A stretch of DNA of 42,783 nt from a virus (taxonomy: Duplodnaviria > Heunggongvirae > Uroviricota > Caudoviricetes), in the IMG/VR virus record IMGVR_UViG_2740892106_000001, one strand, 5' to 3'. Each line of letters begins with the position of its first letter. Position 1 is the stretch's first letter. The position numbers were made by a program. Positions 35,201-38,200 of the stretch are shown here, in pieces.

Positions 35201-38200
35201 AAGACTGCGCAGTCTTCAGATGGAAGTGCTCATTGGGAACGGTTTCAGGGGCAAAAACTGGAAGTTCCAGTGGGCCTTGAGCTGCTCCCTATAAATTAAC
35301 ATATCTCAATGTTATCAATGTCTGCTTTTGGCACAAAGCGGACAACCACGCTAGCTCTACCCTGTGCCACAAAATGTCAATTTACATCTGAACTAATGCA
35401 CTTTAATCTCGTCACTTCAAAAAATACCGAACATCCCCCTGATAAAACGACAATATCCGCTGCATAACTTCGCTTTTACGACACTCAGTACAAATTATAT
35501 TATGACGCCTGTCGTAACGACGTATTTCTCCATCAGGTAATGACCAGATAAGGTCCGGATCAACCGCAGATGGTTTCTTCAGCTTTGCCCTTGAGAGCTT
35601 TTTACGGGCATTTTGCCAGTCCTTACGCGCCTGTTCAGACGGGAATAACCCGTAACCAGAGTTGTATACATCGCCGCTGGCAACCAGCTCTCTTGCGAGA
35701 ACGCTCATCAGATATCTTGTCGCACCTGTCTTGACTTCCAGTTGCCGTAACGTCTCACGCCCACTCTGGCGTACGAGTTCAACAACCTGCCCTTTAATTT
35801 TTTCTCGCTCTTCTTGTGTAAAAACTTTTGCCACAAGTCCTCCTGAAAATTACCTCATGACCAGAAATCAACACTTACCCCCTGAAGCCCGGTGGAATTT
35901 CGGTATCTGGTTCAGAAATGTGATTCACGCAACGCTGGTTATTCGTACCGCTTACCGGGAGCAACCAGGGGTTTTCAAAATTCCGGTCCGGTCCAAAAAA
36001 CGTCGTCGCTCGCTGAACAAATTCCGTTCCCGCTTTCCCGGTAGCCGCCAGATATCTTGCGTAACGCCTCACGCCATCCAGCATGGCCTCTGGTGGCACC
36101 CCCTCGCGTAATCTGGCCTTCCAGGCACTGAAAGCGGATTTCTTCGGGTTTGCCCCAGCACGCAACGGGTACTCCCGCCAGACCTGTTCGAACACATCCG
36201 GATAATCCACTCGTCCCACAGACTGCCCGGTGTTTTCCGGAACTACCCGATCGGCTTCCCGCTGAATGGCGGAATCGGCTTCAGGCTGCTGCAGTTGGTG
36301 TGATTGCTCCGGCCTTGCGGTCATCACCTGCTGCACAGCGCCCGAATCGGCTTTCAGCGCATACGCTGAATCGGCTTCCGGTGTCGTGCCTGCTGGCTGA
36401 CCAGGATTGACGGCCTGAACATCCCCTGCCTGGTTCGTGGCGTTTTTTACGCCATGGACCATAGTATTTTGATCTTCTTGATCTGTATCTTTATCTGTAT
36501 CTTTATCTGTCGTGACTCGTCGTGACATGTGCGTGACATTTCGTGACGCGCCGTGACAATCGCCATTTTGTTCCCGCTTTCTTTCCCTCTCTCGCTGCGC
36601 CCTCTTGCGCTCTGCAGGAGATTTTGCGGTTTGCGATATATTGCCGTTGTCCTCTTTAAGCACTTGGCGTTTTTCCCATCCAGTGATTAAATCACCATCA
36701 AGTACCCGCCCCTGCATCGTCTGCAAAATTGAATCAATTACCTCTTCTGTTACGTCGAGCGCACTTGCCAAATCTTCTGTCGTGACATCAATGTGACCTC
36801 GCGTGACATTTCGTGACGCGCTCACCAGGAGGTGGATATACACTGCCATCACTGTTGCAATTGGCTGCCCTGACACCCTGGCAATTGTTCGCCACTTAGG
36901 GTCATTTGGCATGTCATGCCATAATCTGAGCCAGGCGTTAGCCATACTCACCTCTTCTGATACCGAATCTTTTTACTCACGAGTTGCCGGAAGCGATTCG
37001 ATATGGCTATTGTCAGTCAATGTACTGCCACAGCATTTCCTGCCGGGCCACCACGGTTCATCTGATTGAAACCGGCGATTGCCACTGCGACAAAATCATC
37101 AGCGTCTCTCACCAATCGCTCCCGCGTCTCCACCAGCTCCCGAAAATAAGCTGAACTGTGGCTGCGCATTCTGGCCACCAGCAAAGGTGGCATTGCCTTT
37201 TCGATCGCTGGTAACAACGCCTGAATTTTTTCAACTGCATCAGGGGTGTCTTTCTCTACCCAGCGGAAAATTTTCTGGGTATTGCGAGCCAAGGCTTCCG
37301 GATGGCTGTCGTCATACAGTTCAGGAAACGTCATACCCAACTCAAAATAAGCCTGGGTTATTCCAGCTGCTGGAACTTTTTCGCCATCAGGACGCGCCCA
37401 GGCATTCATCGCCATGCGGATGTGTTCATGCTTGATTTTCATGAATCCTCCCCTTGGTTAGAAGGCGGATTATGATCAGAACCGGGAATGACAACCGTCG
37501 GTATGTGTAACTCATATTTGAGCGCCCCGGCAGTGACTGCCTGAATTAGCAACGCCCATTTCCACGGAACCTCTTCCCCCCACATGCTGACTGTGGTTTT
37601 TGACGTTCCTAGAGCTGCGGCTGTTTTAACAACTCCGCCAAAATAGCCTAATACTTCTGATTTTTTCATGAGTCGCTCCATAAAACTGAACGCCAAAAGT
37701 TTAATAATCAAAACCAAAGAAAGTCAAGAAACAAAACCATCTGTGTTTTAAAATCAAAACATGAGCAAGCAAACAATATCTGAACGCATAACCCAACGTA
37801 TGCATGCGCTAAACCTGAAAGGCAAAGACCTTGTCAATGCCACTGGCGCATCAAAAGGCTCCGTAAGTCAATGGATGAACGGTGGAGGAGCGCCGTCCTC
37901 GCGTTACATAAGTTCACTGGCAAAGATATTGAAAGTAAACGAAAATTGGCTTCTTAATGGAGGAGAGTTAAATACAGGTGATTCGCTTGATCTATCTTTA
38001 CCGCCGATAAAAACGGTTCCGCTACTATCACTTCAGCAGGCAGCAAGCTGGAGTGATTATATGAAAAATTCCTCAATAACCTCTTGTGTGCAGCTTGTCG
38101 GAGAAATCCCGGCCAATACCTTTGCAGTTGTTCTAGAGAGTGACAGTATGTCAACATCTGGTGGGGGAGTTTCCATCCCAAATGGTTCAACAGTTTTTGT

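Follow-up and report, generated by a model that had tools for sequence, protein, structure and literature searches.

A DnaT-like C-terminal tail on the replication initiator of a loader-less lambdoid prophage suggests recruitment of the host DnaB-DnaC machinery

The IMG/VR virus record IMGVR_UViG_2740892106_000001 (Caudoviricetes), a stretch of 42,783 nt analysed here in full and hereafter called the window, contains a common lambda-like prophage of Escherichia coli, whose replication module consists of an initiator gene ('phage replisome organizer', phrog_3729; 35875-36945, minus strand) followed by no recognisable helicase loader. Comparison of this module with its relatives suggests that the initiator borrows the host loader DnaC. 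In the preferred reading, to which a probability of roughly 60% is assigned, the module would have a lambda-style origin at which the initiator recruits the host DnaB-DnaC, most likely through a C-terminal tail similar to that of the host DnaT protein, and a phage-encoded dnaC would be an optional cassette.

The extreme C-terminal tail of the initiator, VNHISEPDTEIPPGFRG, is composed of 17 residues (35878-35928, minus strand) and matches the conserved tail of the host DnaT. The last 17-24 residues of the protein (...RCVNHISEPDTEIPPGFRG) can be aligned end to end with the DnaT C-terminus (...RDVNTVSEPDSQIPPGFRG). This similarity was detected by an NCBIfam DnaT match to the tail (E = 0.0015), by a tblastn search of DnaT against the window (E = 1e-5, at the tail) and by a PDB sequence search, where the tail matched the DnaT chains 6aep, 2ru8 and 9zbt_D. 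Tail conservation was measured from a search with the host DnaT, which recovered DnaT orthologues only among its best 120 matches; in 91 DnaT orthologues the tail [VIL]NxxS[EQ]PDxxIP[PR]GFRG is almost invariant, and the initiator shows the same conserved ending (...SEPDxxIPPGFRG). At the nucleotide level, 10 out of 60 tail positions differ between phage PhiR42_1 and the window, all of them synonymous, and the last seven codons of the host dnaT show three differences from the window, again synonymous without exception. Such synonymous-only differences indicate that the tail is maintained at the peptide level by purifying selection. The host dnaT gene lies directly upstream of dnaC.

A second line of evidence comes from the gene that follows each type of tail. 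The initiator family is a mosaic of at least five N-terminal domains, three types of C-terminal domain (CTD), named here CTD X, lambda-O type and DnaT CTD, and alternative tails, in which the tail type tracks the downstream gene independently of both the N-domain and the CTD type. An unbiased DNA-pattern scan of IMG/VR for PDxxIPxGFRG plus a stop codon resulted in 96 analysable loci with at least eight initiator architectures, which are followed either by a DnaC-type gene (57 loci) or by no loader (39 loci), with no P-like, other IstB-like, DnaB-like or primase-helicase gene downstream in any of the 96. Among the individual loci compared (L numbers), a true DnaC follows the IPxGFRG tail in L003, L011, L012, L021 and L026, and no loader follows it in the window, L006 and L015 or, on a CTD of the lambda-O type, in PhiR42_1 and mEp460_ev081. 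Similarly, the initiators of SfII and mEp460_4F5 end in ...QIPAGFRG and have no loader downstream. In the case of the loader-less L123, the initiator N-domain is fused to a DnaT CTD with its tail, about 63-64% identical. The L123 gene (3512-4288 of IMG/VR 2558860467_000003) encodes an N-domain, an acidic linker and near-complete DnaT residues 82-179, an organisation also found in L183-type loci, and its product could be either like the ancestor of the host dnaT or the result of a capture of this host gene.

Other tails are accompanied by other partners. An acidic LDCxxW tail precedes a lambda-P-like gene (L007-L010 and L027), and lambda O itself ends in ...LDLTNTDWIYGVDL (LDLTNTDW) and is followed by P, whereas the GFSEQDYG..CNW tail is followed by a gene for an IstB-like protein of 292 aa, whose identity to DnaC (about 31%) is limited to the AAA+ core, and then by a DnaB-like helicase gene. 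Within the species-representative (GTDB) set, a loader or helicase gene comes immediately after almost every CTD-X initiator that ends in another tail; L036 is the only other-tail locus without a recognisable loader, and L024 looks frameshifted. Modules without a loader are thus found almost exclusively in the DnaT-tail class. The L036 locus (Variovorax; 3952-5413) contains a CTD-X initiator with an unrelated tail, followed by an overlapping open reading frame (ORF) of 261 aa without any Pfam family, which may correspond to an unrecognised partner or loader.

The absence of a P/DnaC-type loader, as claimed by the original prediction, holds for the whole window. Pfam and PHROG scans of its genes detected no DnaC/IstB, lambda P (PF06992), DnaB or primase-helicase, and a six-frame tblastn search of the window with 14 seeds (four DnaC, two IstB-like, lambda-P-like, DnaB-like and primase-helicase) gave nothing credible. 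The two-gene O-P arrangement of lambda is likewise missing, as neither a P-type nor any other loader or helicase gene lies directly downstream of the initiator. A spacer of 40 bp (35835-35874, minus strand) separates the initiator stop from the start of the next gene, DUF977, and this is the site where some relatives carry a dnaC-ydaW cassette. Such relatives with a DnaC-like gene, already envisaged in the original prediction, do exist: among 77 IMG/VR loci with a CTD about 99% identical, 67 are loader-less and 10 contain the cassette, a 1.5-kb segment that fits exactly after the stop codon of the initiator and before the start of DUF977. When the window is compared with L067, L091 and L114, the homology breaks at 35877, and it resumes in L067 and L114 at 35837, 3 nt before the DUF977 start. 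These breaks at gene ends point to a clean 1.5-kb module that alternates with the 40-bp spacer. The phage DnaCs of L003, L011 and L012 are 45-50% identical to the host DnaC over their full length, and a dnaC gene carried by the phage itself is, in the preferred reading, an optional addition to these initiators. The cassette always pairs dnaC with a gene of the 'YdaW family' (about 256 aa) in the order DnaC, YdaW, DUF977 (L003 4392-5162; L067-type loci).

The loader absence is therefore real and common, and it is already on record in the literature. According to a recent survey (PMC12315714, Genome Res 2025), 34 out of 314 lambdoid phages, including phage LLS, encode an O homologue only, none of them had been studied and their replication was not understood. 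The module in the window belongs to this 'O-only' lambdoid class. The original prediction had proposed that the loss of a loader would leave the prophage replication-defective, which is not supported by the data from its relatives. The initiator of phage Tritos is identical at 351 of 356 residues and its gene order, O-DUF977-FRG-hokD, is the same as in the window, and its 46-kb genome has no annotated loader and none was detected by tblastn with the loader seeds. Virions of Tritos were found in culture supernatants in the LF82 study, where a plaque was isolated and propagated on MG1655 hsdR- (PMC9928086). Further phage records in which a non-loader gene comes directly after the initiator comprise Evi, mEp460_ev081, PhiR42_1, HannyBb, SfII and mEp460_4F5, and of these Evi, mEp460_ev081, PhiR42_1 and SfII belong to a phage isolate collection. 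Moreover, this junction was located by a 201-bp probe across the initiator stop and the DUF977 start (coverage of at least 80%) in 3034 of 5426 complete E. coli genomes (56%), where the reading frame is intact. Altogether, the plaques of Tritos, the loader-less majority and the isolate records do not support a replication-defective prophage. A prophage that has lost its loader, and either cannot replicate alone or needs a loader in trans from a co-resident prophage, might be suspected from the relatives that combine the same initiator with the dnaC-ydaW cassette, and from the several lambdoid prophages usually present in an E. coli strain, but it is a very improbable explanation for a form that makes plaques and virions in Tritos, outnumbers the cassette-bearing one and keeps its reading frame intact in over half of the complete genomes.

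The gene next to the initiator encodes, as originally described, a protein of 140 aa without Walker motifs, and no NTPase motif was found in its profile scans. It corresponds to the DUF977, LygF or 'Ren-like' gene (35412-35834, minus strand), with a clear match to PF06163 (E = 4e-29; 101.8 bits against a gathering cut-off of 22.1) and to the 'Ren-like' family phrog_142. The protein shows local similarity to lambda Ren, and its gene occupies the ren position of lambda. Its location directly after the initiator, together with a region that resembles a DNA-binding protein (phrog_2391), could be taken as signs of a novel helicase loader replacing P or DnaC, an idea that is hardly tenable for a protein with neither NTPase motifs nor loader homology, which groups with lambda Ren and is missing from the loader-less SfII and L123. 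The Ren protein is dispensable for lambda replication. In the loader-bearing relatives, DUF977 is found downstream of DnaC, and so it accompanies a loader instead of replacing one. These comparisons identify DUF977 as the putative counterpart of lambda ren, with no apparent part in loading.

Regarding the origin, the lambda-like layout within the initiator gene proposed by the original prediction was confirmed, with several corrections of detail. The main iteron cluster (36507-36557, minus strand) contains five GTCACG repeats (gene strand), with a spacing of 10-11 bp, that fall in interdomain linker codons. The five CGTGAC repeats claimed at this spacing map exactly, on the plus strand, to 36511, 36521, 36532, 36542 and 36552, the last one ending at 36557. 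An upstream cluster (36777-36821, minus strand) with four GTCAC cores, also 10-11 bp apart, lies in the codons of the N-domain; of the four CGTGAC repeats assigned to it, three are exact (36781, 36802 and 36812) and the other one reads TGTGAC. The GTGAC core is common to all nine repeats, which have the same orientation. Both clusters are linked by an exact repeat, GCGTGACATTTCGTGACGCGC (36531-36551 and 36801-36821), whose length is 21 bp instead of the 19 bp first given, and no exact repeats of 21 bp are expected in shuffled sequence. The hexamer CGTGAC occurs 21 times in the whole window, 8 of them within about 310 bp, and its count across the window is not enriched over chance, so that the signal resides in the clustering and phasing of the repeats.

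An AT-rich, purine-skewed tract (36462-36510, minus strand; GC content of 0.25 over 40 nt) is a candidate DNA-unwinding element. It includes a 12-bp tandem repeat, TCTTTATCTGTA, present 2.9 times at 36476-36510 and coding for DKDTDKDTD, where the GC content falls to 0.35-0.38, as compared to 0.52-0.63 on both sides within the gene. This tandem repeat was correctly noticed at the outset, but it follows the five-iteron cluster and is not flanked by the two clusters. Directly after the AT-rich tract there is a palindrome (36431-36461; core CATGGCG-N5-CGCCA) with a DNA fold of -8.7 kcal/mol (z = -3.4). Along the gene, the four iterons come first and, after an ordinary coding stretch of about 220 bp, are followed by the five iterons, the AT-rich tract and the palindrome, the last three elements falling in the codons of a predicted disordered linker. 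In ori-lambda, a palindrome is also found beside the AT-rich tract. The five iterons, the AT-rich tract and the palindrome reproduce the ori-lambda layout, and the origin is inside the initiator gene. A scan for DnaA boxes at the origin revealed no enrichment, and DnaA is accordingly not invoked; a sigma-70 promoter scan gave results at chance level.

Comparison with related genes connects the iterons to the N-terminal domain. GTCAC repeats occupy the same two positions as in the window, with an AT-rich tract after them, in seven out of eight examined genes that share the N-domain of the window initiator (N-domain A; Escherichia, Serratia and Yersinia), and the eighth one, L011, has GTAACG repeats in their place. 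None of the genes with N-domain B carries GTCAC iterons, but different repeats, GGGGCTTYGAAG. That iterons track the N-domain is the result expected if this domain binds them. On the other hand, equivalents of the AT-rich tract are present in all the relatives compared, and the hairpin is kept in eight of nine related genes, including those with N-domain B that lack GTCAC iterons. A DNA alignment of eight sequences shows an invariant CATGGCG arm, whereas stem positions vary. The hairpin was found in the window, L002, L003, L006, L008, L009, L011 and L012, and it is missing from L007, a relative of the DnaT-CTD/P type; it encodes (L/M)VHGEK, a peptide oddly conserved for a disordered linker. 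The iteron switch that goes with the N-domain variants can be seen in L011 (4400-4570), L006 (5430-5600) and L003 (6430-6600) with respect to the window (36500-36560), and these variants, in which the AT-rich tract and the hairpin are constant, constitute a natural set of specificity swaps.

The initiator has 358 aa when read mechanically from GTG 36951, the gene end given by the original prediction, and 356 aa from ATG 36945. The latter is probably the true start, since homologues begin with MANAW and a ribosome-binding site (GAGGTG) precedes it. The protein matches phrog_3729 ('replication initiation protein') over its full length (E = 8e-257) and shows 98-99% identity to cluster P0001, which has 5786 member sequences, as well as to TRITO_36 of Tritos. 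Profile searches could thus place both proteins of the module, the initiator in phrog_3729 and its neighbour in DUF977, but no Pfam family was found for the initiator at E ≤ 0.01, NCBIfam assigned it to none, and there was no match to the N- or C-terminal models of lambda O, and the CTD alone matched nothing in Pfam at E ≤ 10. In contrast, the initiators of PhiR42_1 and SfII do have a CTD of the lambda-O type. N-domain A (36706-36945, minus strand) is a helical region (residues 2-79 in an AlphaFold2 model, with a predicted local distance difference test score, pLDDT, of about 70-78) and the presumed iteron-binding domain; its match to TIGR01714 (phage_rep_org_N) is weak (E = 0.016, 15 bits) and well below the cut-off of 49.8. 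A long predicted-disordered linker of variable length among homologues (residues about 130-247; 36211-36564, minus strand; pLDDT below 35) leads to CTD X (YPxxFExxW...FFGPDRNFENPW; 35962-36210, minus strand), which has three predicted helices (residues 252-304, pLDDT 67-79) and no Pfam or PDB relative in sequence and profile searches.

Among the PHROG neighbours of the initiator there are families labelled as 'DnaD-like helicase loader' and 'primosomal protein'. The possibility of CTD X being a divergent DnaT domain was considered and dropped, because its hhalign comparison with the DnaT CTD was not significant (probability of 0.8%), and one PDB match to the initiator, a designed repeat protein, was taken as chance. 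The initiator has no DnaT N-terminal oligomerisation domain, no acidic PriB-binding linker and no DnaT similarity outside the tail, and the three-helix domain of DnaT that binds single-stranded DNA (ssDNA; PF17948) was found neither with Pfam nor with hhalign. As judged from its sequence, the protein is best classified as a member of the 'phage replisome organizer' group and not as a detectable homologue of lambda O.

The most likely pathway for these modules would start with the binding of the iterons by the N-terminal helical domain of the initiator, followed by the opening of the adjacent AT-rich tract as an unwinding element. Host DnaC would then load the host DnaB helicase, given that some loader is needed and that a close homologue of DnaC is what the optional phage cassette supplies. 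The disordered tail would engage the DnaC-type machinery by copying DnaT, which acts as the adaptor delivering DnaB-DnaC to restart primosomes. The alternative of host recruitment, mentioned in the original prediction, is in this way retained as an inference, with the DnaT-like tail as its candidate element, and it is comparative association that suggests the binding partner of this tail. A more general and more tentative proposal, which is given somewhat less than an even chance, is that ...PDxxIPxGFRG would act as a portable docking module for DnaC-type loading machinery, common to DnaT and to many otherwise unrelated phage initiators.

The resemblance to DnaT could also be explained through the restart primosome, if the tail bound PriA or co-oligomerised with the host DnaT, the extruded palindrome served as an assembly site and DnaB-DnaC arrived through the restart pathway. 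The docking of the DnaT CTD on PriA, the oligomerisation of DnaT and the effect of the tail on this oligomerisation and on cooperativity would fit such a route, as would the conserved hairpin adjoining the AT-rich tract and the loader-less relatives, such as L123, with a whole DnaT CTD and tail fused to the initiator N-domain. However, IPxGFRG tails are also carried by CTDs that have no relation to DnaT (CTD X and lambda-O type), true DnaC is the only one of the seeded loader types found downstream, so that the simplest partner lies on the DnaC side, and the literature examined offers no evidence of a contact between the tail and PriA, all of which makes this route unlikely. Even less likely would be a tail that is a mere element for self-assembly or ssDNA cooperativity, or just a mosaic boundary, with a different region of the initiator, or the host DnaA, recruiting the helicase, and the covariation due to linkage. 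Oligomerisation is indeed the known biochemistry of the DnaT tail, and the tail codons lie next to either the loader gene or the junction with DUF977, a mosaic segment that is itself widely shared, but purifying selection acts on the peptide, the tail is found on the host DnaT as well as on the at least eight initiator architectures, loader-less modules are almost limited to this tail class and the origin shows no DnaA-box enrichment.

Several points weigh against docking of the tail on the DnaC-type machinery. The evidence for it is comparative association throughout, and, as the tail codons are adjacent to the loader gene, linkage in mosaic segments could account for some of the covariation. 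No homology of CTD X to DnaT, DnaD or the C-terminal domain of lambda O could be demonstrated; the AlphaFold2 model, built from an alignment of 18 sequences, is poor overall (pLDDT 48), and Foldseek searches against PDB gave only insignificant helix-turn-helix and sigma-factor matches. The plaque evidence comes from the relative Tritos and not from the prophage in the window, and the MG1655 strain has its own cryptic prophages, including Rac with ydaV, which is DnaC-like, so that a loader supplied in trans to Tritos is possible. In the case of DnaT, the published roles of the tail are trimerisation or oligomerisation and cooperative ssDNA binding, not DnaC binding, and a 2026 preprimosome paper favours DnaT's N-terminal domain for the recruitment of DnaB/DnaC, a process whose mechanism it describes as unknown (PMC13377028). 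The literature examined on DnaT contains no statement of what the extreme tail contacts, and the literature searched gives no description of a DnaT tail on phage initiators or of a link between tail and loader; the word DnaT is absent from the sections of the lambdoid survey (PMC12315714) that were searched.

The family of loader-less modules described here is similar to other replication systems in several aspects. As with ori-lambda and its O and P genes, the origin is located in codons between the N- and C-terminal domains, with iterons, AT-rich tract and palindrome, and the module, with cro and a cII-like gene upstream, is followed by a ren-like gene. However, the window has no P gene, its initiator is not detectably homologous to lambda O, the four iterons of 18-19 bp in lambda are replaced by five short repeats at 10-11 bp plus a second cluster of four, and the tail is of the DnaT type and not that of lambda O (LDLTNTDW...). 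The O-only phages of the recent survey are of the same class, which is linked here to the IPxGFRG DnaT-like tail and to an optional dnaC cassette in relatives. The last 17 residues of the window initiator fit the tail consensus of DnaT, [VIL]NxxSEPDxxIPPGFRG, and the host dnaT-dnaC operon resembles the loader-bearing relatives, in which a true dnaC comes after the initiator gene; unlike DnaT, the window protein is an origin-specific initiator and not a restart factor, with no detected N-terminal or ssDNA-binding domain of DnaT.

Fusions with parts of DnaT have been previously described, as DopC consists of an O-like N-terminus fused to the DnaT C-terminal domain (Brezellec 2017, PMC5509034). 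DopC/DopE and O157-type organizers also combine an origin-binding N-domain with DnaT-derived parts, and P0069-type proteins have N-domain A and iterons in common with the window. Nevertheless, DopC/DopE and O157-type proteins have a DnaT CTD without the DnaT tail, and a P-like loader, whereas the window initiator has the tail without that CTD, and no loader. Among plasmids, the iteron-containing pSC101 (RepA), R6K (pi) and RK2 (TrfA) use the host DnaB-DnaC in E. coli, with DnaA boxes and DnaA as a co-factor. Their initiators that bind iterons, their AT-rich elements for unwinding and their use of host helicase and loader correspond to what is proposed for the window, but the initiators are unrelated and the window shows no DnaA-box enrichment. 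Finally, phages of the P22 type (gene 18 initiator and gene 12 DnaB-like helicase) and other Enterobacterales CTD-X initiators have CTD X in common with the window protein, followed by IstB-like and DnaB-like genes, but they carry the GFSEQDYG..CNW tail and their own loader and helicase. The O-only class and the DopC-type fusions were already known; for the presence of the DnaT tail on phage initiators and its link to the loader type, no earlier description was found in the literature searched.

In the prophage, the module is part of the minus-strand early-right operon of lambdoid type, in which gene calls, Pfam and PHROG indicate the order regulators, initiator, DUF977 and an opposite-strand FRG gene. 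Profile matches identify a cI-like repressor (immunity) upstream of the module (37761-38399, plus strand), a Cro-like gene (37439-37717, minus strand) and a YdaT/CII-like gene (37017-37442, minus strand). The oppositely oriented gene that had been noticed after the 140-aa gene is indeed present (33839-35173, plus strand) and encodes an FRG-domain protein of 444 aa (PF08867; PADLOC PDC-S15, E = 1.7e-98). The FRG protein fills the moron slot behind the replication module, Tritos carries an FRG gene too, and this moron is a candidate for anti-phage defence, outside replication. Beyond it there are hokD/sok, DUF968, rusA, Q and four tRNAs, and then the lysis, head and tail genes. Rfam matches correspond to a sok antisense RNA beside the hokD-like gene (32889-33213, minus strand), the small RNA (sRNA) DicF in the dicB region (39567-39618, plus strand), the four tRNA genes downstream of Q (29149-29455, minus strand) and the IS009 sRNA family between the cdt and tail-fibre genes (4514-4712, minus strand). 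The left end of the window is occupied by cdtABC and the host gene zinT. The cdtA-cdtB-cdtC operon (1995-4200, minus strand; CDtoxinA/C domains and an Exo_endo_phos nuclease) lies at the tail-fibre end, adjoined by zinT (275-925, plus strand), and its presence indicates that the prophage is a carrier of the cytolethal distending toxin (CDT). The cdt segment had no match among the phage records searched, and the prophage is not tied to any characterised CDT phage.

A last question is related to the meaning of these modules for lambdoid phages and their hosts. There is nothing unusual about the element as such, which is extremely common, and its interest lies in the mechanism suggested for loader-less phages and for DnaT. 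About one in nine of the lambdoid phages in the survey (PMC12315714) encodes neither a loader nor a helicase next to its initiator, and over half of the complete E. coli genomes contain the junction described here, which also occurs in prophages that carry toxins, such as the cdt phage of the window. The tail match and its strict tie to a DnaC-type or absent loader turn the O-only gap into a simple, testable hypothesis and, for annotation purposes, a missing loader beside such an initiator should not be counted as the sign of a defective prophage. If true, a portable docking tail would explain the replication of O-only lambdoid phages, which would mimic DnaT at the phage origin and take over the host DnaB-DnaC, and would also point to the contact by which DnaT hands DnaB-DnaC over to restart primosomes. 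In that case, the host dnaT-dnaC operon would fit with a domesticated phage module of initiator and loader.

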